Positions 900 through 53,380 of a stretch of 64,000 bases of DNA are shown here, piece by piece (the stretch's first letter is position 1; every line of letters starts with the position of its first letter). This DNA comes from Octopus vulgaris (lineage: Eukaryota), in the NCBI GenBank assembly GCA_951406725.2, contig OX597837.1, positions 30,380,001 through 30,444,000 of the forward strand. Reading direction: 5' to 3'. The translations under genes were made by a program, and so were the position numbers. Below the pieces are notes generated by a model. It was not told where the DNA came from. It did no database searches and saw only the letters and a list, made by a program, of their open reading frames with translations.

Positions 900-947
900 T
901 TCAACATGCTGTGTTATACCTAAAAACAGAGGGTTATACACATCCAG
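900..947 (+). CDS. TNF-like gene copy A, exon 3 (48 nt)
   Basis: ctttcag|TTCAACAT...CATCCAG|gtaagc; encodes QHAVLYLKTEGYTHP; same length and phase as the exons at 25390-25437 and 52509-52556; splices in frame to 3475. Confidence 0.85.
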
Positions 948-1718
948 GTAAGCTAATTTATACAGATTTATTGCACACTTTTTCTCATAATTTGAATTAC
1001 TCCCTTACATAACTGATAATAACTACTTTATATAAACACCTATGTCGCTATATACATTTTAGAATCAATTAGGTGTAATGAAATCATTAAATATTTCATT
1101 AACAGTTATAGTAATAGTCTTTGGCTATTACAAACTATTAATACAATTAGTGGGTGAGTAAAGAATGTCCCCATATTATTTTAACAAACGAATATGCATC
1201 TGGGTAAAATAAATGAGTTGACTGGAAATGCTGGGAAAGTGGGGGTTGTTCCCATTTGCCATTACACTGTTCCATGTCATATCCCATTTCCTGTTCATTT
1301 CTTGTTCATTTCCTGTCTTTATATCCATCTTGTCATTTATGTAAAAAGGTTATTGCAAAAAATAGGTATTACAAACTATTAATTCGATCAGTGGGTAAAT
1401 AAGGAACATCTCTATACTATTTTAATGAATGATTGTGCATCTGAGTAAAATTCACTAACATAAGTCACCCTCTCTCTGTTAGTACCTTTCTCTCTGTTAC
1501 TACCTTAGACATACGTTTTGCAACCTTCTCATTTTATCTCATAATTCACCCAGTGCTCCAGGGGTGCAAATTACAGATTTGTATTGAAATCTAATTATCC
1601 TATTATTGAACTGGATGTTAGTGTAACATGTATGCAAAGTTTCATGAATATTGGTCAATGGTTTAGGTACTAAGATGGTAACAGATGGACAGGCAGAAAT
1701 TGTCATATACATACATAT

Positions 1719-1763
<45 letters not shown>

Positions 1764-1950
1764 TCGATAGATAGATAAATACACATGCACTCACGCACAC
1801 ACATGCACACATGTATATTGTTGTATATATATATATTTATGTATATCAATAATAATATGACAACAAAAGAATGAATGAGACCTAGATATTATGCAAATAG
1901 AGGAATTTATCTATGAATATAATATATGTGACAATTAGTTGGTTGTCATA

Positions 1951-2009
1951 ATAAAACTCAGAGTTTTGGATGCCGGGGTTGAAGTCTGCTCCGGCATCTC
2001 ATCAGTTAT
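1951..2009 (-). ncRNA. Degenerate hammerhead-ribozyme-like motif (Penelope-type remnant)
   Basis: Minus strand: ataa CTGATGA GATGCCGG..CCGGCATC CAAAAC TCTGAGTT ttat; the GAAA core is mutated. Confidence 0.4.
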
Positions 2010-2015
2010 TAAGAC

Positions 2016-2346
2016 AGGTGGTATAAAAATGTTTCTGGGGTAGTTATGTTTGATAAAAATAACTTGTATATCTAATTTTTTAAATCATCTCCTTTGAAAT
2101 AGTCACCTTGTGCAGCAATATACCAGTTCCAGCATTCCTGCTGCTTTTCAAATGTAGCCTGGAAGTTGTCTTCTGTAAGTGGTGGTCCTTCAGAGATTCA
2201 CTCTGGATCCCATTGGTGGTGTTATAATGGCAACCTTTGAGCTGTATTTTCATCTTGGGAAAGAGATGGAAGTACACAGGTACTAAATCTGGGGAATAGG
2301 GTGGGTGCAGAAGTGATACCCCCATTTTTGGCAAGAAGCTCACCAA
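2016..2346 (-). mobile_element. Tc1/mariner transposase C-terminal remnant
   Basis: Translation LLHPPYSPDLVPVYFHLFPKMK contains the mariner YSPDL motif; degraded. Confidence 0.8.
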
Positions 2347-3092
2347 TGAGGAGGGCTCAGTTAAGAACCCAATTCTTCATGCTCCCGAGACCAGGTTGTT
2401 TTTGCCTAATATCCTCTTTCAAGGGCTCAGTTAAGAACCCAATTCTTCATGCTCCAGAGAACAGGTTGTTTTTGCCTAATATATATATATATATATATAT
2501 ACATATACCTTTGGTGAGAAATGTTACACATTTGAAATTCTCTCAGAGTATACTCTTTACAGATCTCGTTATCTCTCATTTCCAGGGTTGTTTTTCAGTG
2601 CATTTGAAGTGCCTGGCCTATGAAACCTACGTACAACCGCATATATATATATATCGAGCATATATATCTTTGGTGAGAAATGTTACACATTTGAAATTCT
2701 CTCAAGTATCGTCGATTTTGTACCTTTGATCATATGTGTTTATACATATATACACCAGCATGTATATATACATATGTATAGGGGATAAACATATGACATA
2801 AACACACACATATATATATATGTATATATATATATACAACAGTGCTTATTTCAGTTTCCGTGTACCAAATCCACTCACAAGGCTTTGGTCGGCCCGATAT
2901 AGTAGAAGACACTTGTGTGTGTGCCACGTGTGTGTGGTGTGTGTGTGTGTGAACCATGTGGTTGGTGTGTACTTACCACACAACCACTCCTGCGTATGTC
3001 GATTTTGTACCTGTGTGATTATATGTGTTTATACATATATATATATATGTATATATATATATGTATATATATATATACATATGTATATATAT

Positions 3093-3200
<108 letters not shown>

Positions 3201-3474
3201 CTTTGGTGAGAAAGAGGAGAGAGATGAAAGAGGGATTTTTTGCTCTATGTATTGAATATATCTGTAAATTATCATTATCATTAAATTAGTGAGTTAGCAG
3301 AATCATTAAGACTTAGTCTGAAATTCTGTTGAGGTTGTCTTCAGCTTTCATCCTTTTAGTGTCAATAAAATAAGTACCAGTTAAACACTAGGGTCAAAGC
3401 AGTTTACTTAATCTTGCCCCGTAATTTCTAGCTTTGTGCAAAATGTGAAATCATTTTCATTATTTCTTTTTCAG

Positions 3475-3863
3475 ATAAGGAAATAAGGTTACAATGGAAG
3501 AAAGATGAGAAGCAGAGTGTAGGCAACATTCAACTGGTCAATGAAACTCTCATATATATTCCACAGGATGGGGTATACCAAATAAACAGTGCTGTGCAAT
3601 TGCACTTTAAAAAAAATGATTCTGCAGCAATTGTAACCATGTTATATAGGAAAAAGAATGGGGCACCAGACGAATATTTTATAAAAAGGAAAAAATCCCT
3701 ACACAATGTATCAGAACATGCTGTAATACAAACATCATTTACACACCAATTTAAAGCAAATGATTCAATGTATTTGATGATGAACAAGGCAAGATTCATC
3801 AGCTCCGATAAATACTCAAGCTATTTCACTATCACCAGTTCCAATACAAATGATCCTCAGTAA
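3475..3863 (+). CDS. TNF-like gene copy A, terminal exon (TNF homology-like domain)
   Basis: tttcag|AT; DKEIRLQWKKDEKQSVGNIQLVNETLIYIPQDGVYQINSAVQLHF...FKANDSMYLMM...SSYFTITS; matches the THD pattern L-x-W ... I-x-x-x-G-x-Y-x-I-x-S-x-V-x-(F/L). Confidence 0.85.
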
Positions 3864-9057: not shown

Positions 9058-9077
9058 ATATATATATATATATATAT

Positions 9078-10235
9078 GATTGATTGATTGATTCTAGTTT
9101 CAGCTTATGAGCTGCGGCCATGCTGGGGCACCGCCATTTGATGTTGCTATTTGGTTTCACTTCACGAAAGCTTTCTAGCAACTGCCATTTGGTGCATGAG
9201 AGAGTTCGTTGCAGCTGCCCTCATCTGCCCCTCCTGCAGTTCATCTGGGACACCTGACAGGAAGAGATCAAGCTTCATTTTAAAGACATCCGCATCCACC
9301 CCATGCAGGTCTCTCAGGTTCTTCGGGAGGATATTGAAGAGTTGTGGGCCTCGGAAGCCCAGGCTATCACAGAATCTTGTCCTACATCTTGATGGCAGGT
9401 TTGGAGTCCTAGGCACCACGCAGTGGCGCCCAGTTCTGGCATTTGCGTAACTCTCGATGCCAAAGTTCAGGACACGTCCCTCCAGGATCTTCCAGATGTA
9501 TATTATGGCATATCTTTCCCGCCTACGCTCCAGGGAATATAGTTTTAATCTCTTGAGTCTTTCCCAGTAGCTTACATTCTGCATAGAGGCTATCTTCTTC
9601 GTGTAGCTACGTTGGATCGCCTCGAGCTCTGTGATCAACTTGACACTGGATGGTGACCATAACTGAGAGCAGTAGTCAAAGTGGCTTAGGACAAGTGTCC
9701 TCCAGAGGACCATCATGGTTTCTTGTTCTCTTGTTCTAAAGGTTCTGAGGATCCATCCGGCCAGTCGTCTACATTTCATTGCCAATTTAGCAACATGTAC
9801 ACGAAAGGTCGCGTCATCACTCATGTAAATACCTAGGTCACGCACTGATTGTGCCTCCGGGTCCAGTGTATTCATTGGGTATTGCATTTAGTTTTGCATG
9901 CTGATAGTATAGAGCTTGAAACTTTTCAGCATTGAACTGCATGCTATTCTTTTAGGCCCACTTGTATATTTTGTCCTGCTCACATTGCAGGTGTTTAGTG
10001 TCCTCAGGGTTCTGTATTGCCTGTGAAACTTTTGTATCACCTGCATAACTTGTGATCGTGGCTCTCTGCGTGGCTGAGGGCATGTCTGAGAGGGCCATTA
10101 TGAACAGTAGTGGTCCCAGAACAGTGCCCTGCGGAACACCGCTCACTATTTGCGTGTTAATGGAAGTGGCCCCATTGGCTGCTACCACCTGACTTCTATC
10201 TTTCAGAAAGTCATGAAGCCATTCTCCCAGTTTTC
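9078..10235 (-). mobile_element. 5'-truncated CR1-type LINE
   Basis: RT motifs GVPQGTVLGPLLF and YAGDTK plus C-terminal LYSLERRRER; near-identical to 36240-37407 apart from small indels; (AATC)n tail; embedded in TA runs. Confidence 0.92.
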
Positions 10236-27400: not shown

Positions 27401-27792
27401 AGAATTTAAAGTGGAAGGAAGATGATGACCAGCAAATAGGTGATATTAAATTGCTGAAGAAAACTCACATCCTTATATCGCAAGATGGGTTTTACCATAT
27501 AAATTGTATAGTGCAATTGAGGGTTAATAAAAATATTTCACAATATATCATATTGAAGGCTCATATTAAGAAAAATGGGGGAAAAGATCATATATTAACG
27601 CAGAAAAGTACCCATTCCTTAAAAATAACAGAATATTTCACAATGTACTTACCATTTACAGCCAAACTTCAAACTAATGACACAATCTATTTTGAGATGC
27701 AAGGGGCAGAATTCATAATCAAGGATGATAAAAGAAGCTACTTGTACATCTACAGCTTCTATTTAGATAATCCTCCGAAACATAAGCCTTAA
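27401..27792 (+). CDS. TNF-like gene copy B, terminal THD exon
   Basis: ttttag|AG; ENLKWKEDDDQQIGDIKLLKKTHILISQDGFYHINCIVQL..LQTNDTIYFEM..; exons 288+43+48+392 nt give an uninterrupted 256 aa protein. Confidence 0.85.
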
Positions 27793-28718: not shown

Positions 28719-28769
28719 AGCTTCTACAGGACTAGTACTGTTTCATTCAAGAGAAATCTTCAGGAAGCT
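28719..28769 (-). ncRNA. Type I hammerhead ribozyme motif (inverted pseudo-LTR copy)
   Basis: Reverse complement of 32150-32200. Confidence 0.75.
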
Positions 28770-29951
28770 ATTTAACAAGAATTGTATTAGCATTTATACA
28801 TTTAGAGGAGTGGTGGTGGGGGACTTTTTGGGGGTAGGCATAGCGCAAAATATCATACTTGGGGGAGTGGTCAAGGTAATAAAAAAATAAAAAAATATAA
28901 AAAATAAAATAATAAAAAATAAAAAAAATAAAAAAAAGGATAAAATAAAAGAATAAAAATAAAAAATATAAAAAATATAAAAAATATAAAAAATATAAAA
29001 AATATATATAAAAAAAATCCGGCGACAGGATAAATCCAACCAAACTACCCTCGCCGCCCACATCTGGTACCTTAAAAGGAACTCAATCCCCTTCAAGACC
29101 AAGTGGAAACTACTACAGAAGGCGCGCTCGTACACGGGAGGACATACCTGCTGTGACCTATGCATATCAGAGAGCCTAGAGATCTTGTTCGCCAAAGGCC
29201 CTCTCCTTAACAAATTTTCAGAACACTCCCCAAACTGTATGCATAAGAAGTACGCGAACTACAAGAACTATAGACCTACCCGGCAACCTGATTGATGACA
29301 ACCCCCCCTACAACCCCCCCCCCCCAACCCCACTGTTCCCCTAGCACCCCCGATTACCTTTTCTCCTAAGACCTTTCACATATTATATGTGCACGCTTGT
29401 ATATGTGTATCGTATGTATGTATGTATATATGTATAGAAATGCATGGGTACAGTAGGAATATACGCATGTATTATGTGTGTGTGTGTGTATGTATGCATG
29501 TAAAAAAATATATATGTATATATATTTGCATGTATATATATATATATATATATGTGTATATATATGTGTATATATATGTATATATATATGTATGTGCTTG
29601 TATGTGTGTGTGTGTGTATATGTGTATATGTGTTTGTATGTATATGTGTATATATGTATATGCATATGTATGTGTAAATGTATGTGTATGTATGTATAAA
29701 ATATTATATAATTAGGGCTTAGGAAAATAAAATAAATTACTTTGCCACATACTAAACTTTCTAGAAATAGCAGCCAATAAAGTTTTTTAGCCTCTTCCAC
29801 TACTTAGAGAATTTTTTTCCCTCTAACATTGTTTACTCAAAATAATAATGGTCCCTTTACATACTGAACACTTGATGAAATTGATTAATAACTAATTAAC
29901 TTTACCCTCCCTTGTTGATATATATATACATATGTATATGTGTACATGTAT

Positions 29952-33821: not shown

Positions 33822-35046
33822 TGATTATATATATATATATATATACATATATAGGTAATATATTGGTATATATATTGATTATATATATACATATATTGAT
33901 AATATATATACATATATATTGATAATATATATACATACATATATATATATTGGTAACTGGTTGCATATCTATGACATTTTGTTCTTTTCACCTAAAAAAA
34001 TTATGATTATTATGTAATCGTTGCCATCTTGAAACAGCTGTCAAGTTAAGATATTATATATTTCCTTTATATTTTATAAGATATTTCTGATATATCAATC
34101 GATCCAATATTAATTTATGTGTGTATTGTAACATTAATTGATTGTATTTAAAGATAATTCTGTAATGGAAACGTGTGTTGGTTTCTTGTATGATGTAATT
34201 CTGGATTAAAGATGTGTTTTTCTTCATTCTTGTTAATTTCTTCGGAATTTTTTTTTTAAAACTGAGCTAAATTCAGAGTTACTGATCAGGCTAGTACAAC
34301 CGTGGCTGTTAATTCCTTTCAGATTTAATGGACTCTACTTGATCGATATAGTTATCCAAGACTATTACAAAGGTATCTGCCTGGATTTTTGAATCCTCAT
34401 AACACCATTACTTTGTATGTATGTGTGTATGTGTGTGCATGCACACGTGAATGCATGCATATGTATGTATATACTCATGTATATATGTAACTAGTAGTTT
34501 ATTTCACCAACCCTTGGAGGAATGAAAAGAAAAATTGACCACAGTGGTATTTGAACATAAAAATCCCAGAGAAATACATGAAGGTATTGTCAGGCCACCA
34601 ACCTTGGAAAACAGGATAAAATAATATGAAATCATAGTGATAGAGAGAAAAGAAGATTAGAAAAAGGAAACAAGAAAGATTGTGTGTGTGTGAGAGAGAG
34701 AGAGAAGAGAGGAAAAAGAAAGTAACAGAGAGAGAGTGAGAGAGAAAAAGACTGTGGGTGACCCTAATATAATGTCAAGTGAGAAAGTAAAGTGAGGGAA
34801 GAGAAAGATAAGAAATATAAAGCAGAGTATTTATTTAATGTCATTGAGAATTTATTTATTCTAACGTTGTGTCATGGTTATTTGCTGAAAGTTAGCAAAA
34901 ATTTCCACACCAGCAACATAACATTTTATCAAATAGAAAGATATCTCAAAATCAAAGGAACATGGCAATCTATATTTGGAAACTCAGCCACAGGTGAACT
35001 GTGTAATTATTTTAAAAAAATGAACTTGAATGTGGCACATTCCTTT

Positions 35047-36075
35047 ACTCAAGCAACTGGTCAAGGTAGGTCACCTGCTGATACTCAAACAACTGGTTGA
35101 TATAAGGTGCCTGAGGGTCCTCAATCAACTGGTCAAGATAGGACACCCGTGGGTACTCAAGCAGCTGGTCAAGACAGGGTGCCTGAGGGTCCTCAAGCAA
35201 CTGGTCAAGATGGGGTAACTGAGGATCCTGAAGCAACTGGTCAAGGTGCGGTACCTGAGGGTCCTCAAGCAACTGGTCAAGGTGAGGTAACTGAAGGTCC
35301 TCAAGCAACTGGTCAAGGTAGGACACCTGTGGGTACTTAAACAGCTGGTCAAGACAGGGTGCCTGAGGGTCCTGAAGCAACTGGTCAAGTGAGGGTACTC
35401 AAGCAACTGGTCAAGGTAGGTCACCTGCTGATACTCAAACAACTGGTTGATATAATATGCCTGAGGGTCCTCAAGCAGCTGGTCAAGATAGGACACCCGT
35501 GGGTACTCAAGCAGCTGGTCAAGATAGGGTGCCTGAGGGTACTCAAGCAACTGGTCAAGATGGAGTAACTGAGGATCCTGAAGCAACTGGTCAAGGTGCA
35601 GTACCAGAGGGTCATGAAGCAACTGGTCAAGGTGAGGTAACTGAAGGTCCTCAAGCAGCTGGTCAAGATAGGGTGCCCGAGGGTCCTCGAGTAACTGGTC
35701 AAGAGAGGGTACTCAAGCAACTGGTCAAGGTGGGGTAAACGAGGGTCCTGAAGCAACAGGTCAAGGTGTGGTACCTGTGGTCATGAAGCAACTGGTCAAG
35801 GTGGGGTAACTGAAGGTCCTCAAGCAGCTAGTCAAGATAGAGTGCCTGAGGGTCCTCAAATAACTGGTCAAGTGAGGATACTCAAGCAACTGGTCAAGGT
35901 CGGGTACCTGAGAATCCTGAAGCAACTGGTCAAGGTGGGGTACCTGAGGGTCCTGAAGTAACTGGTCAAGGTAGGATAACTGAAGGTACTCAAGCAACTG
36001 GTCAAGATAGGATCCCAAGGGTCCTCAAGCTACTGGCTAAATAAAAGGCACCTGAAGGCCCTCAAGCAACTGGTA
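35047..36075 (+). repeat. 36 bp coding-type minisatellite (PEGPQATGQxxV-like)
   Basis: Recurrent CTCAAGCAACTGGTCAAG core; higher-order duplication at 35047 and 35397. Confidence 0.92.
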
Positions 36076-36307
36076 AAAACTGGACTGAACCTGAAGTGTG
36101 ACGGACCCCTTAATACCAAACCCCAAAGAAAAGGCACTTCCAACAACTTGGCTTGAATGTCATAAACATGCAATTTAATGCAATAATTGCAATTATTATT
36201 ATTATGACAACGGCAATCTTTATTTTGATTTTGATTTTTCCAGTTTCAGCTTATGAGCTGTGGCCATGCTGGGGCACCGCCATTTGGTGTTGCTACTTGG
36301 TTTCACT

Positions 36308-39303
36308 TCATGAAGGCTTTCTAGCAGCTGCTATTTGGTGCATAAGAGAGTTCGATGCAGCTGCCCTCATCTGCCCCTCCTGCCGTGAAGTTGGTTCATC
36401 TGGGACACCTGACAGGAAGAGATCCAGCTTCATTTTAAAGACATCTGTATCCACCCCATGCAGGTCTCTCAGGTTCTTCGGGAGGATATTGAAGAGCTGT
36501 GGGCCTCGGAAGCCCAGGCTATCACAGAATCTTGTCCTACATCTTGATGGCAAGTTTGGAGTCCTAGGCACCACGCAGTGGCGCCCAGTTCTGGCATTTG
36601 CGTAACTCTCGATGCCAAAGTTCAGGACACTTCCCTCCAGGATCTTCCAGATGTATATTATGGCATATCTTTCCCGCCTACGCTCCAGGGAATATAATTT
36701 TAATTTCCTGAGTCTTTCCCAGTAGCTTACATTCTGCATAGAGGCTATCTTCTTCGTGTAGCTTCGTTGGATCGCCTCGAGCTCTGTGATCAACTTGACA
36801 CTGGATGGTGACCATAACTGAGAGCAGTAGTCAAAGTGGCTTAGGACAAGTGTCCTCCAGAGGACCATCATGGTTTCTTGTTCTCTTGTTCTAAAGGTTC
36901 TGAGGATCCATCCGGCCAGTCGTCTACATTTCATTGCCAATTTAGCAACATGTACACGAAAGGTCGCGTCATCACTCATGTAAATACCTAGGTCACGCAC
37001 TGATTGTGCCTCTGGGATTGCTATTCCTCCGGGTCCAGTGTATTCATTGGGTATTGCATTTAGTTTTGCATGCTGATAGTATAGAGCTTGAAACTTTTCA
37101 GCATTGAACTGCATGCTATTCTTTTCGGCCCACTTGTATATTTTGTCTACCTCACATTGCAGGTGTTTAGTGTCCTCAGGGTTCTGTATTGCCTGTGAAA
37201 CTTTTGTATCATCTGCATAACTTGTGATCGTGGCTATCTGCGTGGCTGAGGGCATGTATGAGAGGGCCATTATGAACAGTAGTGGTCCCAGAACAGTGCC
37301 CTGCGGAACACCGCTCACTATTTGCGTGTTAATGGAAGTGGCCCCATTGGCCACTACCACCTGACTTCTATCTTTCAGAAAGTCATGAAGCCATTCTCCC
37401 AGTTTTCCAACTATGTTGAGATCACGCAGTTTGTTACATATCATTCCATGATCGACTTTATCAAAGGCCTTTGCAAAGTCGAGATATATCACTTCCACAT
37501 TTGAGTGGTTGAGCAGCCGTTTCAGCACCCAGTCATAGTGTTGTAGGAGCTGAGTTAAACAGCTTCTCCCTGGTCGGAAACCATGTTGGGTGTCGGGCAG
37601 CAAGTCATTTTCTTCAAGGAAGGTGATCAGCTTCCTTCTGACTATTCGTTCCATGTCCTTGCTGATGTGTGAGGTCAGAGAGATAGGTCTGTAGTTCTTG
37701 GCTTCCGCTCTGCTACCTCCTTTATGAATGGGGCATATTTTACCTTCCTTCAGTTTTCTTGGAAGTTTGCCAGCTGCAAGGAAGCTCTGAAAGAGGAACT
37801 GCAGTGGTCTTGCTAGGACTCTCTTACATGCTTTTAGGAGGATTGCCGGGAATCCATCGGGGCCAGTAGCTGAGTCTGTTTTCATTTCATCTATAGCCTT
37901 GATTACATCGTCTTCCTTTATATCGATGTAATCTATCGTCGCCGCCTCTGATTTTATATCTGCAGTGGTAAAAAAGTCAGTTGGATTGGTGATTTGAAGA
38001 TGCCCAAGGGGTGGAGTGAAAACACTCTTGAATTGCTCATTCAGTATTTCACTTACCCTCATTGGTTTTCCTGTAAGTGTGCCATCCTTTTCGAGGAGTG
38101 GCCCTATTCTACAGTGCACCGTAGCTGTTTCTTTGGCATACCTGTAGAAAGCTCTGGGGTTAGATTTTATGTTGTCTATAGCCCAGGCTTCTTTGTCTGC
38201 TCTTTCCTTTTCATGGGAGAGTTTCAGACATTTTTCGATTTCCAACAGTTTTATTTTTAGGCGGGACTTTTCATTGCTTTCAAACTGTTTGTTTAGGCGA
38301 TTTGAAAATTTTGTACGCCGTCTCATTAGAATTTTCCTCTCTCTGGGGATTTTGTTCTTGTGTACAGTGGCCTTTCTCTCTGGGACATATTTGTAGCATA
38401 TGGCTTGCATTACAGACATGAATTGTTGAAGTTTCACGTCGATGTCTGGCGAGGAGAGACATTTAGGCCAGTTTTGTTTGAGGATCTCTTTCTCAATTTG
38501 TTTCCAGTTTGCCTTATGGTAGTTCAAGCTGGAAAGATTCTGGGGTTTCTTGTAGGCTGCATGTCCGTGCTCTCTTTTGGCCCGTACATGGTCAGCTCTA
38601 TCATGTTGTGATCCGAGAGTAGTGTCGGTGTCACTTTCACATTATGGATGAGATCCATGTCATTTGTGAAGCAGAGATCTAGTGTGTTACCTGCCCTGGT
38701 TGGTTGGAGTATTACCTGCGCCATGTACAGGGTGTTGATGAGGTTCAGGAGGGACCTCGCCTGTCCTCGTTCACATCTTGTCATTCCTGGGAGAGAAAGG
38801 CCCTCGGGCCATCTAACATTTGGCAGATTGAAGTCTCCCATAAGAAGTACACTTATGTGTTGTTCTAATGTGGTTAGAACTTCTTCTATTTTTATAAGGC
38901 AGTCTTCAAACTTGCCCACATGGCTTGGGGCATCTGGAGGGCGATATGTAGCACACACAACTACATCAAGTTGCCTAATATGTACAATTAGTGTGTCACA
39001 CACCGAGTTTGAGTATGACAAGAGGACCTGGGGTGTGAGGTCCTCACGGATGTACATAGCAACACCTCCATGACTCCTTTCTTTCCTGTCGGTCCGTAGT
39101 ACAGCATACTGTGGTATGTGTAACTCCGCATCTGCTATGTCCGGTTTCAGGTGCGTTTCCGTTAGTGCTATGCATAAGGCTTGATTGCATGCAACAAAAT
39201 CTCTCAGGAACGGGATTTTTGTCCTGTTACTGAGTGTTTGCAGTCCTCTGATGTTCAGTAGGAGCATCGAGGTGAGGTGTACGTTGTTGCCGGTGGTGTC
39301 CAT
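36308..39303 (-). CDS. LINE ORF2 (APE endonuclease + reverse transcriptase), one frameshift near 38546
   Basis: EN motifs NIRGL, LTETHL, YRPP, GDFN, LDL, SDH; RT motifs YRPISLTS, QHGFR, LDFAKAFDKV, GVPQGTVLGP, YADD. Confidence 0.92.
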
Positions 39304-40139
39304 CCTGGGTCTGTTTGCTGTGGTGGTGGTCTGGTATATAGTGGGTAGTCCCACCTGCGGGCTTGGGTTTGATGAAGCCAGGTCAGCTGCTGTACAATCT
39401 TTTGTGCCATGCACAAAAAAGATTGTTGCTCAGCAGCTGCCCTTTCGACAACATCATGTTGGTGGTTTGTGGCACGCACAACATCTGCGTACCTCCGCTT
39501 TGGGGCAAGTGGTGCGTGGTCCATCCCTTTTCCTTGTGTTGATGGTTTGTCCATCTGCCTCGTGTCTCTGTGGCAGGGTCCCCGATGTGCAAAGCGGCAG
39601 CCTGCACCTTCCTTTCCATGCCAGCAGGAACCTCTCAGGTAGAACCTACACACCTGTGTGCGCTGTCCGTTTCCATCTTTTGCGGTTCCACTTCTATTCC
39701 TGGTTTTTTCACCCTTTGGTCCTGCTTGAGCTTTTCCTTTAGCTCTACCAGCCCTTCTTTTAGTTCTTCCTCCTCCCTCTACCTCTTCACCGGGTTCTCC
39801 GTATCCATGGCCTTTGCTGCCGGTTGGAGAACTTGCACCTGGGTTCACTTCCCGGGCAGGTTTCTCATTCAAAACCTCCTCCCGGGCATCCACCAGGTGG
39901 GGGTGACTTCTTTCATCGTTTCCATTCTTGTCATCTTTGCCTCGCTCGTTCTCAAAGATGGCATCAAGTGCGCCAATGTGCGACCGTACAAGCGCATATG
40001 AGCGCACGAATTCCCGTCTCTTTCGCTCCATCTGAGCCGCTGTCCTCTTGTAGCCTCTGCTCTTCAGCGCAGCCGCAATCACCTCGCTAGGGCTATCTCC
40101 GCTATCTCCCATGCTTGTACGAATAAAACCATCTCCCAT
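39255..40139 (-). CDS. LINE ORF1 with a CCCH-type zinc finger
   Basis: 294 aa ORF directly upstream of and overlapping ORF2; CRFYLRGSCWHGKEGAGCRFAH. Confidence 0.75.
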   Translation of the reverse strand: MGDGFIRTSMGDSGDSPSEVIAAALKSRGYKRTAAQMERKRREFVRSYALVRSHIGALDAIFENERGKDDKNGNDERSHPHLVDAREEVLNEKPAREVNPGASSPTGSKGHGYGEPGEEVEGGGRTKRRAGRAKGKAQAGPKGEKTRNRSGTAKDGNGQRTQVCRFYLRGSCWHGKEGAGCRFAHRGPCHRDTRQMDKPSTQGKGMDHAPLAPKRRYADVVRATNHQHDVVERAAAEQQSFLCMAQKIVQQLTWLHQTQARRWDYPLYTRPPPQQTDPGWTPPATTYTSPRCSY

Positions 40140-40249
40140 GCTTGTACGAATAAACCAGCTCGTCAGGTCTCCATGCTCTGGACATGCTGGATGATCTGTC
40201 TATTTGTTTATCTATTTAACTATGTTCGAGAGAAGACAAGAAGATATTT

Positions 40250-40925
40250 AATCTTAAGGCTAATTATGGGATAGAGTATTATTAATATTAACAATATTAA
40301 AGTTTGTGGGTAAAAACGTTATCTAATCTTAGGCTAATTAGGAGATAGAGTATCTGAAAATATGTTAACAATATTACAATTTTATTAAAGTGTGGGTAAT
40401 AATCGTTATTTAATCTTGGGGCTAATTAGAAGGTAGAGTATTCAAAAATATATTAAAGTGTGGGTGAAAAAGTTAAAGTGTGGGTAAAAACGTTATTTAA
40501 TCTTAAGGCTAATTAGAGGATAGAGTATCTGAAAATATGTTAACAATATTACAATTATATTAAAGTGTGGGTAATAATCGTTATTTAATCTTGAGGCTAA
40601 TTAGAAGGTAGAGCATCCAAAAATATATTAAAGTGTGGGTGAAAAAGTTAAAGTTAAAGTGTGGGTAAAACGTTATTTAATCTTAAGGCTAATTAGAGGA
40701 TAGAGTATCTGAAAATATATTAACAAATATTTAAAATGTGGGTAAAAAGGCTAATTAGAAAGATATTAGAGTGTGGGTAAAAAATTAGATGTTAAAGTGT
40801 GGGTAATAAACGTTGTTTATTCTTAAGGCTAATTAGAAGATAGAGTATCTGAAAAATTATTAACAATAAACAGTATTAAACGTTATTTAATCTTAAGGCT
40901 AATTAGAAGATGGAGTATCTGAAAG
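40250..40925. repeat. Tandem repeat array in the LINE 5' UTR
   Basis: Recurrent TTAAAGTGTGGGT and TAATCTTAAGGCTAATTAGA modules. Confidence 0.85.
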
Positions 40926-41726
40926 AGGTAAGAAAGAGGGGAAAGATTAGTTATCTATATAAAGTTCATGAAAGTTCACGTCCATGCATATATACGCATA
41001 CATATATACATACACGCACACACACATACATACACGTGCACACACATACACATATACACAGACGGGGAGAGAAGGAAGGTGGAAAAAAAAAGAAAGAAAA
41101 TGAGTGAAAATATATTAAAATATATATATATTTTAAAGTGTGAAGAAAGGGTTATTTAATTTTGAAGCCAAATTCTACCTTCGAGACAGTTATTGAAATG
41201 TAAACAAAAAAAAAAAAAAAAAAAATAGCGATCGTAAACTTTAACGGAGATGTGGGCTTAAGTTATATAAAATAGGATAATAAACAAAATATGAAATAGA
41301 AGATGAAAGTGATACTTAATCCAACGATGTGGTCTGGATTTTTCGTGGTTTTTTTCGTGGTTATTTTCCAGGAGATGTTTCTTTTTCCTTCTACAGTGGA
41401 TTATTTTTTTTTTTTTTTTCACCATGTGCGTTTTCGGTGAAAAGAAAAAATTTTTACTGTGTTTGGCTTCAGGCAAAATATATTACGTTTTTGATTAATA
41501 TATTTGTAGCCGAAGTGTTGTAGTGGGCTTTATGAGTTGAATTTGTGACTTTCAGTAGATTATTTCACCGATTTATGCACACTTTCTGCTTTTTAAACAG
41601 AGCAAAAACGATACACGACTCTCCCTGTCGGATCCGATATATATATATACTCTAGTTAAGGTAATTAACTTAATCTCATTTATTTACATGCATACTAGCA
41701 GAATAGCACACACACACATACCCACG

Positions 41727-45915: not shown

Positions 45916-46444
45916 CACACATTAGTGTAGCTCATTCAGACAAACTAAACTTTGTCTATTTACTATGAAACGCAAGTTCAGTTTATTTGGAGAAAGCTAG
46001 CAAAGGTGGCAACACCAACAGTCGTCAGTCAAAATTTGCGCGTAGACAGCTTTCAGAATTAATTCAAGAAATCGCTGAAGGAAATCGAAGAATGTGAAAC
46101 TAGTAGTGTAAGGGAGATAACTCAAAGCATTTTAGTGAAATCTCACTTTTCTTACTTCTGCGATCGATAAGTTCCAATCAAATACTGAGATTGATCACAT
46201 CTATGTATTTATTGTTGTTGCTATCTTTACGCTGGAGTTATCTTATGTCTGATGATGCCAGACACAAAGATAGGGGGACAGAGGAATATAGATAGAAATA
46301 AGTATAAAGGAACTAGGGGTCTTTTGGGTCCGAGTGGCTGAGGTTACGAAGGTGGGGTCAGGCGCTATAAACCAGCAATACCCTTCATGTGCTGAAAAAG
46401 TAGGGAAGCGTCGTTCCCTTAAGTAACCCTTCGTTTCCATCTCT

Positions 46445-46550
46445 GCTTTAGAATGAAAGAAAATAGATTATGAGTTTGGAGAAGTTACTATATAAATGCA
46501 AATTAGGGCGAGACAATCATTTGTGGGAGCGGCCACGGGAGAAATACTAC
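46445..46550 (+). promoter_or_regulatory. Conserved upstream block with TATATAAA (copy D)
   Basis: Aligns with 60629-60735 upstream of copy E; TATATAAA at 46489-46496. Confidence 0.5.
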
Positions 46551-46907
46551 TGAATTGCATACAGGTAAATGTCTACAATGAGAAAGTGGTTGTTTGAAAT
46601 TGAGTTCATGACCATAATATGTGTGTGTGTGTGTGTGTGTGTGTGTATGAAGGAGAGAGGGACAGTGACAGAAAGAGGTTGTGTGACAGAGAGAGAGAGG
46701 GGGGAGAGAGAGTAAGAGACACAAGGTGAGTGAGAGAGACGGTGGTAAGAGGAAAAACCGTCGACAATCAGGAAGTAAAACAAGAAAATCAGACGAGAAA
46801 AGAAGACAGGTCGCATAAGACAGAGTGAAAATTACCGATTCAATATCATATCAAGAAGTCAATTGTTCTAACATAGTATCGTGGCCGTTTGTTGAAAAGT
46901 TGCAAAT

Positions 46908-48242
46908 ATGCCCACACCAGACGATTATCATAAGAATGGTGGCTCAAAATGGAACGGCCACAACAGTCAATATTTAGAAGACCAACCGAAAGAAAAGGAC
47001 GAAACTACACAAGACAACGATAGCGACATGGATGAAATGGCCACGGAATCGACATCGTTGTTGCCTAATCAAAACCCCGATCAAGATAGAAGGGATGAAC
47101 CACTTCATTCTAATGAAGAAATTGATAAAGTCAGTCTATCTGCTGGTACACAAGAAACCGATCGAGTCGAGGCAATTGCGGATACGCAATTAACTAGTGA
47201 AGATGAGAACCCTGGTTCACCGTCGTTTACTGAAACAACCAGGGCAAATAGGAGACCTGCTGGTAGAAACACGACCCCTCAAAGTGGGATCTCTCTGGCT
47301 ACTCAAACGACTGAGGAACCTTTAGTTGCTGAAACAACCAGGGCAAATAGGAGACCTGCTGGTAGAGACACGACTCCTCAAAGTGGGATCTCTCTGGCTA
47401 CTCAAACGACTGAGGAACCTTTAGTTGCTGAAACAACCAGGGCAAATAGGAGACCTGCTGGTAGAGACACGACTCCTCAAAGTGGGATCTCTCTGGCTAC
47501 TCAAACGACCGAGGAAGATAGATCCGCGGAACCTTTGGTTACTGAAACAACCGAGGCAAATAGGAAACCTGCTGGTAGAGAAACGACTCCTCAAAGTGGG
47601 ATCTCTCTGGCTACTCAAATGACCGAGGAAGATAGATCCGCGGAACGTTTGGTTACTGAAACAACCGAGGCAAATAGGAGACCTGCTGGTAGAGAAACGA
47701 CTCCTCCAAGTGGGATCTCTCTGGCTACTCAAACGACCGAGGAAGATAGATCCGCGGAACGTTTGGTTACTGAAACAACCGAGGCAAATAGGAGACCTGC
47801 TGGTAGAGAAACGACTCCTCCAAGTGGGATCTCTCTGGCTACTCAAACGACCGAGGAAGATAGATCCGCGGAGCGTTTGGTTACTGAAACAACCGAGGCA
47901 AATAGGAGACCTGCTGGTAGAGAAACGACTCCTCCAAGTGGGATCTCTCTGTCTACTCAAACGACTGAGGAAACTTTGGATTCTGAAACAACCAGGGAAA
48001 ACGTTGAAGAAAGGACATGTCCTACAATAGCAGCAAGTGGTCAAAATGGGATCTCTGCGGATCGTCCATTGACTTGTGTACAAATACCAGATGGAAATGG
48101 GACCTCCGAGAATAGTCCAGTGACAGGTGCAGGAAGGAGACCATGCACAGTACCACCATTGTGTACACGTGATAAATGGAAAATCTTGGTTTTTATTGTC
48201 GTGGTTATAGTAATAGCAATTATTATTGCTGTTATCATTAAG
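46908..48242 (+). CDS. TNF-like gene copy D, exon 1 (445 codons; repeat-expanded tail + TM)
   Basis: Open from the ATG; TM ILVFIVVVIVIAIIIAVII; ends ATTAAG|gtattt. Confidence 0.88.
47232..47984 (+). repeat. In-frame coding tandem repeat, 7 units (99, 99, 114, 114, 114, 114, 99 bp)
   Basis: GAAACAACC unit starts at 47232, 47331, 47430, 47544, 47658, 47772, 47886 and 47985. Confidence 0.95.
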
Positions 48243-48368
48243 GTATTTAATTTCACTGAATTTCATATATGTAGTTTTTGTCAGTCTACCTATTTAGTTA
48301 TCTACAACCTTACTAACTACATATCAACGTACATATATACATGCATACACACACATTAGTAGAGGGTG

Positions 48369-48399
<31 letters not shown>

Positions 48400-48454
48400 G
48401 AGAATGTGTGTGTGTGTATCTATATCTCTCTCTATATATATATAAAACTGAGAA

Positions 48455-48538
<84 letters not shown>

Positions 48539-48662
48539 GTATATATGTACACACAAATGTACACACGCACACACATTCCCACACATTCCCACACACCTCC
48601 TTCTCTTACTCTCTACTTTCTTCTGGTCATTTCAAACTGTAGCCACATGTGAATCGTTGGCG

Positions 48663-48693
<31 letters not shown>

Positions 48694-48722
48694 TATAAAC
48701 ATATACATATACACATATACAT

Positions 48723-48775
<53 letters not shown>

Positions 48776-48915
48776 TTATATGTATGTATGTATACGTATG
48801 TACACACAAATGTACACACGCACACACATTCCCACACATACACACACACCTCCTTCTCTTACTCTCTACTTTCTTCTGGTCATTTCAAACTGTAGCCACA
48901 TGTGAATCGTTGGCG

Positions 48916-48949
<34 letters not shown>

Positions 48950-48973
48950 TAAACATATACATATATACATATA

Positions 48974-49033
<60 letters not shown>

Positions 49034-49057
49034 TATACATATATACATATACATATA

Positions 49058-49088
<31 letters not shown>

Positions 49089-49093
49089 ATGTG

Positions 49094-49154
<61 letters not shown>

Positions 49155-49386
49155 AGGTTTGGAGATGATGTACAGGTATTATATATTAGAAGAAATGAGG
49201 TACTCAGAAAGTCGGATGGTTTATATTTACAGATATTTATTTGTATATTACATTTTTTATATATCATATAACTTAGATTATGTATTAGCGCTTTCTCCCA
49301 TTCTAGTGGGGTTTTCAAATCAAACTTATTTATACAAATAAATATCTGTAAATATAAACCATCCGATTTTCTGAGTACCTCATTTC

Positions 49387-49482
<96 letters not shown>

Positions 49483-49819
49483 TAGATAAGAAAGTTGGTT
49501 TGTGAAAGCACGTGGTTGAATATATAGAAAATAGTAAAAAGTGAAAAACTACAGAAGGCTTGTTTTAAAAGGTTAAAAAATATATATTTGAGTCAATATG
49601 TCTGAAGAATATTATAAATTTTTTTCCTTACAATGACATAGTTTAGAAGAAAGACCGGTTTCGCGTTTAGCTTTTCAAATTTCTTTACAACAAAAGAAAG
49701 TGGGCTTTCCGTTCACATGTGGGAAACCCACTTTCCTCTTTCTAGGAAATATGCATCTCAGTATTAAATTACTTTCTTTAGTCAATACTGATTCATCGCT
49801 TATAAGCTTTAAGCTTATG

Positions 49820-49909
49820 GATTATTATTATTGTTGTTGTTGTTGTTGCTGTTGTTATTGTTGTTGTTGTTTTTGTTGTTGTTGTTATTATTATTATTAT
49901 TGTTATTGC

Positions 49910-49943
<34 letters not shown>

Positions 49944-50128
49944 GCTATTATTATTATTATTATTGCTATTATTATTATTATTATTATTATCATCATTATT
50001 ATCATTATCATTATTATTTCTAAGAAATTTGAAAAGCTAAACGCGAAACCAGTCTTTCTTCTAAATTATGTCATTATTATTATTATTATTATTATTATCA
50101 TTATTATTATTATCATCATCATTATTGC

Positions 50129-50161
<33 letters not shown>

Positions 50162-50563
50162 CATTATTATTATTATCATTATCATTATTGCTATTATTAT
50201 TATTATTATTGAGTGAGAGAGCAGTTCATGCCATCAAAGTGACACTGGGGTAAAATATACGAAGCCCAATATACCCATCATGACTACCCGTCTGATAAGG
50301 GTACACTAGGCACATTCATCACAACCATATGTGCGCGACATGGTGATCTCATATGAAGATAAACAGTACATGACCTTGCAGGTGGGGGCCCAGTTAGAAT
50401 TTTCTTCTGGTCGAGAAACCCATCCCACTCAAAAGGTCCCTGAATAAGGGTTGTTTAAGGATGTTGAACAGAAAGATACACAGAGAGAGAAAAACACAGA
50501 AAGAAGGAGAGAAAAAAATGCGTGCAGTAGCTAACGAATCAACATGGCGATCTATATATATAT

Positions 50564-50610
<47 letters not shown>

Positions 50611-51008
50611 TAAGAAGCTTGAAGCCTATAAGCGATCGCCCTGTATTGACTAACGAAAGTAATCTAATATCGGGTGCATAAGCTCCCGACAGAAAAAGTC
50701 ACTTTTCCATATACCTACGGAAAACCCACTTTTTTTTCTGTCGAGAGCTTATGCTTCCCAATTTGAGGTTACTTTCTTTACAACAAAAGAAAGTGGGCTT
50801 TCCGTTCACATGTGGGAAACCCACTTTCCTCTTTCTAGGAAATATGCATCTTAGTATTAAATTACTTTCTGTAGTCAATACTGATTCATCGCTTATAAGC
50901 TTTAAGCTTATGGATTATTATTATTGTTGTTGTTGTTGTTGTTGTTGATGTTATTGTTGTTGTTGTTATTATTATTATTATTATTATTGCTATTATTATT
51001 ATTATTGC

Positions 51009-51047
<39 letters not shown>

Positions 51048-51135
51048 CATCATTATTATCATTATCATTATTATTATTATCATTATTATTATTATTGCTA
51101 TTATTATTATTATTATTATTATTATTATCATCATT

Positions 51136-51170
<35 letters not shown>

Positions 51171-51173
51171 TGC

Positions 51174-51218
<45 letters not shown>

Positions 51219-51353
51219 CATTATTATTATTATCATTATTATTATTAACATCATTATTATTAACATCATCATTATTATTATTATCATTATTATTATTATT
51301 ATTATTATTATTGCTGTTATTACTATTATTATTATTATTATTATTATTATTGC

Positions 51354-51389
<36 letters not shown>

Positions 51390-51605
51390 CATCATTATTA
51401 TTATCATTATTATCATTATTATTATTATCATTATTATTATTATTATTATTATCATTATTATTATTATCATCATCATTATTGCTATTATTATTATTATTAT
51501 TTTTTTTAAAATTTTTATTATTGCTGTTATTATTATTATTATTATCATCATCATTATCATTATTATTATTACTATCATTATTATTATTATCATCAAAATT
51601 GTTGC

Positions 51606-51669
<64 letters not shown>

Positions 51670-51670
51670 T
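49820..51670. repeat. (ATT)n-dominated tracts with duplicated or inverted repeat inserts
   Basis: Directly visible; about 49682-49850 is repeated at about 50773-50940. Confidence 0.9.
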
Positions 51671-51898
51671 AGAGAATTGTCAAATTTAGCACAGCTTTTC
51701 AAACGCACACACACACACACACACTCATTGCATGACTAATTCAACTAAGTGACAAATGTATTACTTCACTACCAAGACTGTAACAAGACAGTGACAAACC
51801 CTATATGATAAAGTAATACAATAAAAGTGATATAAGCATTACCAGTCACTTTCTTATTTTGATTTTCTTTTTCCCATTTTCTTTTCTTTCTGCTTCAG

Positions 51899-51917
51899 GT
51901 GTACAAGCGGTCACCTC
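51899..51917 (+). CDS. TNF-like gene copy D, exon 2 (19 nt micro-exon)
   Basis: Long pyrimidine tract, ttcag|GTGTACAAGCGGTCACCTC|gtaagt; VYKRSP; phase 0 to 1 as required; followed by the family-conserved intron 2. Confidence 0.78.
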
Positions 51918-52508
51918 GTAAGTTATTATCAGTATTTACTTTTCATGTGTCAATAAAATCACTAAACATGTCCTCAATACATTACAGTCTTAAAATAGGC
52001 AACAATTTTTTAACATGAAAAGGAACAGACATACTAAAGAAACAACTGGAAAAATAACCACATCGTTAAATATGTGAATGATGTGTCTAGGATAATTAAC
52101 TGGACTTTAGATGACACTTTGATAGGATGAAGCCTCCTGTACATGTTTACTAGAATTGTACTATCAGTCTCAGCAAGGCATTGCTACTGTACAACTGAAC
52201 ATGTTAAAGCTCATGAAACTACAATGTGATGGGTGTAATATATAGATATTTATATAGTCTTGGCTCTCTTTCATTAATGGTTAATAATTTGTCCTCCATG
52301 TAGAAAATTTTCGTTATGATAATAATAATTGTGAAACAGTTAATATGTGGTATAGCTATTTATTAGGTGAGAATCTGAAGTATTTAATATCTGAAATATA
52401 TCAAGAAGTGTCCTTTTCTTCTGCCTTAGTCTTCAGCCAGATATTGAACCTGTATTCAAATATGTATTCCTCCCATTGTCTGATTTCTCTCTGTTTCTTA
52501 TTTTTCAG

Positions 52509-52556
52509 TTCACCATGCCCTTTTCCATTTAGAAACAAGTGGTTACACAGATTCAG
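52509..52556 (+). CDS. TNF-like gene copy D, exon 3 (48 nt)
   Basis: tttcag|TTCACCAT..GATTCAG|gtaagg; (L)HHALFHLETSGYTDS. Confidence 0.85.
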
Positions 52557-52789
52557 GTAAGGTTATATGCACAGATTTATTGCACACTTCTCATAATTTG
52601 AATTATCCCCTTAAATAGCTATAATCACAGGGTTAAGCTAATTCCTACTATCAGAGTATTACTTAAAATTCTTTCATTACATGCATGTGTTAATGACTAC
52701 TATTGCATACTTGGGTTAGCTCCTGCTGTTATAGAATTGGGGAAATTATTACACTTGGAGAAGTATACTACCATGATAGACATAAATAT

Positions 52790-53336
52790 TATTAGACTAC
52801 CCGTGACCCACTGGGTCACCTGGAAAGTCCGAGTTTTCCAGCTAATGTGATTTGTTGTGATACTCTGATGGTTACTGCATGGAAAGTGTTCTGCGTAGGA
52901 TGTGTGCAGTGCCTAGTAGTGCAATTTTCTGTATGTTATATGTGTTTGTAAGTCCTGGTGTTTTTGTTATGTATTTGTCTGAATATTTTTTTATCATGCC
53001 TAATGCACCTACTATGATAGGAATTGTTTCTGTTTTTAGATTCCACATTCTGGTTACCTCTATTTCCAGGTCTTTGTATTTTGAAAGTTTCTCCATTTCT
53101 TTTAGAGACACGTTGTCATCTGCCGGTATTGATACATCAATTAGAAAGCATTTATTTTCTTCATGATCTCTGATAACTATATCTGATCTGTTAGCCTTAA
53201 TTTCTCTATCTGTGTGTATCGGCATATCCCAGAGTATGGTTGCTTTTTCGTTTTCTGAGACCTTTTCTGGTGTGTGCCTATACCATCTTTTTTCTGTTGT
53301 TATTCCATAATGTTGGCATAGCTTCCAGTGTATGTA

Positions 53337-53340
<4 letters not shown>
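52790..53340 (-). mobile_element. R4/Dong-like non-LTR retrotransposon 3' fragment (restriction-like endonuclease)
   Basis: ILWD..IHTDR.I.ANRSDIV...IDVSIP...EKLSKYKDL...PIIVGALG...ALLGTAHILR. Confidence 0.85.

Positions 53341-53379
<39 letters not shown>

Positions 53380-53380
<1 letters not shown>

Follow-up and report, generated by a model that had tools for sequence, protein, structure and literature searches.

Gene D of the Octopus vulgaris DNA analysed here (a stretch of 64,000 nt, hereafter the window) is best read, with a probability of roughly 0.55, as encoding a membrane-tethered type II TNF ligand that tolerates an unstable coding minisatellite in its disordered tail. Under this reading, D sits in a tandem cluster of fast-evolving paralogs, and its repeat would have been amplified by unequal crossing-over and conversion. 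Such amplification would be tolerated because the affected segment is a disordered cytoplasmic tail, with selection removing only those changes that break the frame into the TNF domain. From what is known of the family, the D protein would be expected to trimerise and to signal forward, from cell to cell, via a TNF receptor; the window itself contains no receptor gene. Phosphorylation of the tail is probable, and the tail may have a modest influence on trafficking or half-life; its length would be largely a by-product rather than a device tuned for signalling. The length of the D tail need not be a signalling adaptation because the same repeat kept growing in the dead sister gene C. A point against this reading also comes from C, where a span of about 440 codons may point to a long tail that was formerly functional.

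A tandem cluster of TNF ligand genes

The window is AT-rich animal DNA, rich in microsatellites and SINE-like repeats, and contains a plus-strand tandem cluster of TNF-ligand-like genes. A tblastn search identifies exactly three TNF last exons in the window, in genes A (from position 3475), B (27401) and D (54856). The Pfam profile PF00229 matches A and B above the cut-off; the last exon of D, taken alone, falls below it. The features of A, B and E are the following.

900..3863, plus strand: last two exons of gene A (900-947 and 3475-3863); Pfam TNF E 4.1e-6
12911..27792, plus strand: gene B, 256 aa, exons 12911-13198, 22599-22641, 25390-25437 and 27401-27792; Pfam TNF E 1.8e-5
13005-13049, plus strand: repeat in the tail of B, 15 nt x3, distinct from the 36-nt monomer described below
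61019..61492, plus strand: first coding exon of E, encoding a tail of about 135 aa with degenerate 36-nt monomers (61154-61333); full-length record P0006
62704-62746, plus strand: next exon of E; the remainder of E lies past the window end

The public 309-aa protein P0006 corresponds to E, with identity at 163 of the 164 aligned residues, and begins at the modelled Met of E. It lacks 8 residues at the end of the membrane segment of E, which looks like a gene-model error or a splice variant, as do P0001 (a partial and a full TNF domain, the full one identical to that of P0010) and P0004 (no membrane segment). In the modelled non-coding first exon of E (60700-61020), upstream ATGs lead to a stop just past the splice, a possible uORF; the modelled 5' UTR of D contains zero ATGs. 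In the Atlas, the E record is closest to TNFSF7/9-like clusters (score 0.90).

The TNF exons of the paralogs (3475-3863, 27401-27792 and 54856-55235) show pairwise dN/dS values of 0.53-0.84; the A-D value, 0.53, is the only one with an interval (0.28-0.97) that excludes 1. Such fast evolution would be compatible with relaxed or partly diversifying selection. In a TNF-domain tree of 14 sequences (P0001 was left out, being identical to P0010 in that domain), B groups with P0012 (0.99) and D with P0004 (0.90), and no clear D ortholog is available for comparison; because the tree is otherwise mostly unresolved, no order of events is claimed. Each gene carries one block of intron sequence just 5' of the 48-nt exon (559-899, 25045-25389, 52159-52508 and 63822-63913). 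Among A, B and D, this block diverges by only 13-17%, compared to 56-73% at the synonymous sites of the TNF exon, which would suit a conserved non-coding element as well as a tract of gene conversion. An intron of B contains a tandem repeat (184 nt x3, 22658-23208). Two minus-strand fragments (15120-15875 and 28768-29295) give weak GIY-YIG matches, below the cut-off, and are possibly Penelope-like elements.

Structure, fold and topology of gene D

The model of gene D is intact and consists of the following parts.

46420..46564, plus strand: putative promoter (TATA-like TATATAAA near 46489) and non-coding first exon up to a GT donor
46908-55235, plus strand: gene D, 593 aa, exons 46908-48242, 51899-51917, 52509-52556 and 54856-55235
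46877..48242, plus strand: first coding exon, with the ATG at 46908, encoding the disordered tail and the transmembrane segment and ending in a phase-0 donor
47046..47063, plus strand: ESTSLL, a chance-level match to [DE]xxxL[LI], about 375 aa from the membrane
47139..47231, plus strand: degenerate 36-nt monomers preceding the array (C-monomer profile, p=0.002 vs codon shuffles)
47232..47984, plus strand: coding minisatellite of 7 higher-order units, each of about three 36-nt monomers
48183..48239, plus strand: transmembrane segment, aa 426-444 (Kyte-Doolittle 3.99, best 19-aa window)
51899..51917, plus strand: stalk micro-exon of 19 nt (43 nt in B and E), AG/GT, frame kept, acceptor homologous to that of E
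52509..52556, plus strand: 48-nt exon for the initial strand of the TNF domain, with homologs of equal length in A and B
54856..55235, plus strand: last exon, most of the TNF homology domain by a predicted model; no Pfam hit alone

The four exons of D are separated by GT-AG introns, with a single terminal stop and with exon phases as in A and B. The region 46908-48242 is a single stop-free coding exon of 445 codons with a GT donor at its end, and the promoter and non-coding exon block is 82% identical over 116 nt to the equivalent position upstream of E. Aligned as DNA, the start codons of E and B each coincide with that of D at p=0.005, the lowest value that 200 shuffles allow. Since the start codon aligns with those of its paralogs, the long tail is real at the gene level, being built into the model of gene D.

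The predicted model of the last exon (pLDDT 83, pTM 0.77) retrieves TNF-family structures only among the listed Foldseek hits (top hits TNF, APRIL, CD40L and RANKL; TM-score 0.59-0.77), the solved ligands being just 11-17% identical to D. A search of the PDB with the family profile identifies 7dov with E 8e-6. A preprint on the TNF superfamily gives, in its available text, G-L-Y and F-F-G as TNF ligand signatures (bioRxiv 2024.07.27.603686). At the G-x-Y signature D reads D-I-Y, with Asp replacing the Gly that is kept in the other 14 of the 15 aligned sequences, and F-F-G is present in 0 of the 15. Because the fold is kept, these departures are read as family divergence; the Asp at the conserved Gly would be a warning sign for the function of D.

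In D, 425 residues precede a single hydrophobic segment, the first 40 aa contain no hydrophobic stretch, and no signal peptide is detected. The charge flanking the segment (+2 before, +3 after) does not decide its direction. In the relevant part of PMC10803268, N-out signal anchors are described where the translocated tail is short (for EMC, less than about 50 aa), and this, together with homology, favours type II topology. The long N-terminal segment of D is thus most likely cytoplasmic, as the sequence-only reading had proposed. The stalk of D, at 8 aa, is the shortest among the proteins tabulated, and a KR pair encoded in the micro-exon lies beside the membrane.

At E<=0.001, no homolog was found in a search with the D exon, in a search with the D last exon against longer proteins, or with the family alignment against proteins of 553-2000 aa, where no D-sized family member appeared. 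These negatives are weak because the last-exon search also missed relatives that another search recovered. There is no transcript or protein record of D in the searches made, and the Atlas yields no usable match to the D exon.

Tail lengths and the repeat array of D

The predicted tails comprise 74 aa in B, 133-138 aa in E and 425 aa in D. These values agree with the approximately 70 aa (with a short DPVNP repeat, i.e., the threefold 15-nt repeat), 135 aa and 425 aa (with a 33/38-aa repeat) read earlier from the letters alone. A search for relatives returned 16 proteins, 14 of which were fetched and 12 tabulated, with two fragments left out. Among the 12, tail length is 32-61 aa in nine; the others are E itself, a protein with no membrane segment and one that begins at the membrane segment. 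The tail lengths quoted from a review are 22 aa for CD40L, about 30 aa for BAFF/APRIL and about 80 aa, called long, for FasL (PMC6389649). The earlier statement that typical TNF ligand tails are short is borne out both by the 22-30 aa given there and by the relatives. Given 9 of 12 relatives at 32-61 aa and a review range of 22-80 aa, D genuinely stands out, and E does so to a lesser degree. The tails were also called hypervariable, which is true between paralogs, but not of the sole second record of E, P0006, which has a tail of equal length with one substitution.

The D tail is predicted to be disordered (FoldIndex below 0 in 98% of windows) and has a net charge of -30; it contains 107 S/T in 420 aa (25%), 8% Pro and 3 N-glycosylation sequons. 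The array consists of head-to-tail, in-frame units inside the coding exon, of 99, 99, 114, 114, 114, 114 and 99 nt (33/38 aa), 89-99% identical; the two unit lengths differ by one 15-nt indel only. An assembly artefact was rejected as the origin of the array, given that the units differ in a graded, neighbour-wise fashion; the exact copy number in the assembly could be wrong. Two other open reading frames, one on the reverse strand (47421-48293) and one in a second plus-strand frame (47623-48030), were dismissed as by-products of the repeat, an open frame being present in 71% of shuffled units. A Pfam DACNK match to the repeat, below the cut-off (0 stretches), was set aside as compositional.

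A shared 36-nt monomer and the death of gene C

The remains of C lie between B and D.

34901..36220, plus strand: pseudo-exon of C; the start reads ATT, stops occur early, and 30 monomers of about 36 nt occupy 35038-36086
36221..40200 (end approximate), minus strand: LINE retrotransposon in the transmembrane-coding region of C; RVT_1 E 3.7e-30 and endonuclease E 1.2e-12 (Pfam)
41653..41689, plus strand: remnant of the C exon end and splice donor, 84% over 38 nt to the donor region of E

The ATT of C aligns with the start codons of D, E and B. The longest stop-free plus-strand stretch in the C span is 95 codons; stops occur in 4 of the 30 monomers, and 6 of the 29 monomers measured (26, 35 or 37 nt) are not multiples of 3. 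No TNF exon or micro-exons of C are found before the D promoter by tblastn, blastn or a splice scan. Start loss, stops, frameshifts, the LINE insertion and the lack of a TNF exon indicate that C is a pseudogene, so that the tail of over 300 codons once ascribed to it does not stand. The LINE is near full-length, with long ORFs, and a partial copy, 95% identical, is present at 9077-10235 in the A-B interval; beside the LINE lies an 88/175-nt satellite (40294-40731).

The C array contains two copies of a stop-carrying block of 350 nt, a length not divisible by 3 (96% identity across 180 nt); the 26-nt unit likewise recurs three times. Because lesions of both kinds, stop and frameshift, have been duplicated, the growth of the array postdates, at least in part, the loss of the frame. 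The single-base 35/37-nt units could be sequencing errors; the duplicated lesions are unlikely to be.

A monomer profile built from C only matches both E (e.g., PESPQATVNGMI) and D (e.g., PAGRETTPQSGI) in frame and in the 36-nt register. Runs of two or three monomers in E, in the pre-array region of D and in a single D unit each score at p=0.002 relative to 500 codon shuffles. At the protein level, comparison to the C monomers gives p=0.005 for E and p=0.11 for the best single 12-mer of D, so that monomer homology in D rests on the DNA tests. The DPVNP repeat of B was rejected as a 36-nt monomer: one test gives p=0.45-0.52, and a second gives p=0.094 and 0.036 with negative scores, the latter value being a weak monomer signal in one DNA test. 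The B repeat aligns with the 5' unique region of D.

These DNA comparisons show a common ancestor of C, D and E with a 36-nt monomer in the first coding exon. They likewise show that E retains a handful of degenerate copies, that single monomers multiplied to about 30 in C and that in D a block of three monomers reached 7 copies; judged from these patterns, the expansions are separate events from a common seed. The earlier notion of independently expanded repeats is contradicted to the extent that one monomer is common to C, D and E, with the D unit made of three monomers.

Selection and motifs in the D tail

Among the 7 units of D, 16 columns are variable; 4 of the changes are synonymous and 12 non-synonymous, compared to 87:243 possible ones, a ratio of about 1.07. 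So few columns give limited power, and selection on the length or composition of a disordered tail need not conserve its residues. The sequence-only reading took the fact that all units are multiples of 3 without stops as a sign of selection. The observation is correct, but the probability of no stop among 16 changes is 0.56 and the changes occur at a neutral ratio. None of the 7 units of D is frameshifted, as against 6 of 29 in C. This contrast is in line with selection on the frame but does not distinguish it from selection on the tail. The frame of the D exon is likely maintained by selection, because a TNF domain lies downstream and none of 5000 base shuffles leaves the 198 non-repeat codons open; this says nothing on the function of the repeat. 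Exonic VNTRs commonly retain 3n units simply for frame preservation, according to a review (PMC12776774, passages on coding repeats).

Nine motifs were tested on the collapsed tail and on one D unit, with no enrichment of any (lowest P=0.089). The full tail exceeds shuffled sequences (S/T-x-x-S/T 44 vs 27, SxxS 8 vs 2.8, TRAF2-type 7 vs 3.4), an excess due to repeat copying only.

Alternative explanations

An unlikely alternative, and the first to be weighed, makes the D tail a multivalent reverse-signalling scaffold, in which a trimer would present 21 units with TTEE and CK1-type sites and the copy number would tune the output. The TTEE of the D units we take to be a TRAF2-type consensus. The tail has 7 matches to [PSAT]x[QE]E, 6 of them within the array, and abundant S/T, and the very short stalk would fit a retained, unshed ligand. 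CK1 motifs and the FasL tail are established routes of reverse signalling in vertebrates, by the account in PMC6389649, and TRAF2/3/5/6 transcripts are recorded for Octopus vulgaris hemocytes in PMC4199593, at least in the part that covers them. Against these points, counts per D unit are at chance (TRAF2-type P=0.46, S/T-x-x-S/T P=0.16), TTEE is gone from one unit, and the tail has a single PxxP, no proline-rich SH3-binding region and zero Yxx-hydrophobic motifs. The same review ties reverse signalling to tails conserved across species (PMC6389649, relevant section); the tail of B is identical to that of its nearest relative, P0012, at only 20 of 50 aligned residues, vs 61% in the TNF domain. 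Finally, the same monomer expanded in the dead C. A less probable elaboration has D made bidirectional by the growth of the minisatellite: the 21 units of the trimer (TRAF-type TTEE, CK1-type sites) would form an avidity scaffold, and how strongly an immune cell of this invertebrate signals in reverse would depend on allele copy number, with C a dead sister and E an unexpanded one. Reverse signalling by the D tail is possible, but unsupported. The wider proposal that these proteins act as receptors with tunable reverse signalling gains no positive support: the units drift neutrally, no motif is enriched after collapsing the repeats, the tails are poorly conserved and the minisatellite also expanded in dead C.

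It is also improbable that the tail serves as an adaptive module for trafficking or turnover, in which ESTSLL and phosphorylation would hold D in endosomes or granules until a stimulus, as in FasL. The motif, noted in the earlier reading and indeed present, conforms to [DE]xxxL[LI] within a stretch that is acidic and accessible; 4 of 12 relatives have looser matches, and the FasL tail directs storage in secretory vesicles, as stated in PMC6389649. However, such a match arises in 13-25% of shuffles (P=0.13-0.25), the motif is missing from B and E, and its strict form occurs in 1 of 12 relatives. ESTSLL cannot explain the expansion, being outside the array.

We likewise doubt that D is decaying like C, or is mainly made in a shorter form (e.g., from Met238 following use of an alternative acceptor), so that the 425-aa tail would rarely be produced. 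The failure to find a D-like protein, the Gly to Asp change and the dN/dS range would suit this, as would an upstream acceptor with 9 of 17 pyrimidines, not richer than some sites within the exon. The four coding exons, the splice sites and the promoter-like block are intact, however, and the A-D dN/dS interval lies just under 1. No internal GTRAG donor is found in the big exon, and 0 of the 6 ATGs 3' of the array are in frame, the last in-frame Met being Met238, so that even the shortest form keeps a tail of about 188 aa.

An inverted topology, with the S/T-rich repeat as an extracellular mucin-like stalk and the TNF domain cytosolic, might draw on the S/T content, the sequons, the undecided flanking charge and the very hydrophobic segment, but is highly improbable given the missing signal peptide, sequons below chance (3 vs 4.7 expected), the short tails of N-out anchors (PMC10803268, as above) and the type II topology of the family.

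Comparison with known systems and implications

The preferred reading, a tethered type II ligand with a tolerated minisatellite, places D among the TNF-superfamily ligands (PF00229; by features CD70/4-1BBL/GITRL-like), with which it shares the TNF fold, one N-terminal transmembrane segment and a short stalk. It differs in the length of the N-terminal segment (425 aa vs 22-80 aa in the vertebrate ligands cited in PMC6389649) and in its low identity (11-17%). For Octopus vulgaris, a preprint reports six TNFSF paralogs that are monophyletic (bioRxiv 10.1101/2024.07.27.603686, available text), a lineage-specific multi-paralog family which the window genes resemble by description and to which they may belong. 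That text makes no mention of tails ('cytoplasmic' 0, 'disordered' 0 occurrences). Tandem TNFSF expansion is common in tunicates, going by the portion of PMC12843592 that deals with it. A literature search that covered few subscription journals identified no repeat-expanded TNF ligand tail.

With FasL and transmembrane TNF, the known cases of reverse signalling, D shares the type II architecture and a (predicted) phosphorylatable cytoplasmic tail. The FasL tail of about 80 aa, the longest named in the review, is conserved and proline-rich (PMC6389649, section on tails). The inner tail of D is about five times longer, built of repeats, not proline-rich and without a detectable homolog. DRD4 and PER3 carry their repeats intracellularly. 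Exonic VNTRs such as those of MUC1, DRD4 and PER3 (as described in PMC12776774) resemble the D array in their in-frame tandem coding units and graded neighbour identity. The D array differs in being located in the inner tail of a cytokine, with a pseudogene sister array, and is known from one record.

The cluster amounts to a natural experiment, in which one monomer stays short in E, is expanded in frame in D and is expanded out of frame in the dead C. The VNTR review states, in its discussion of coding repeats, that formal tests are lacking on whether the absence of frameshifts departs from neutrality (PMC12776774), and the C/D/E trio gives a matched comparison of live and dead arrays for this question. 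If the D tail does signal, reverse signalling by TNF ligands would extend to an invertebrate, with repeat number as its dial.
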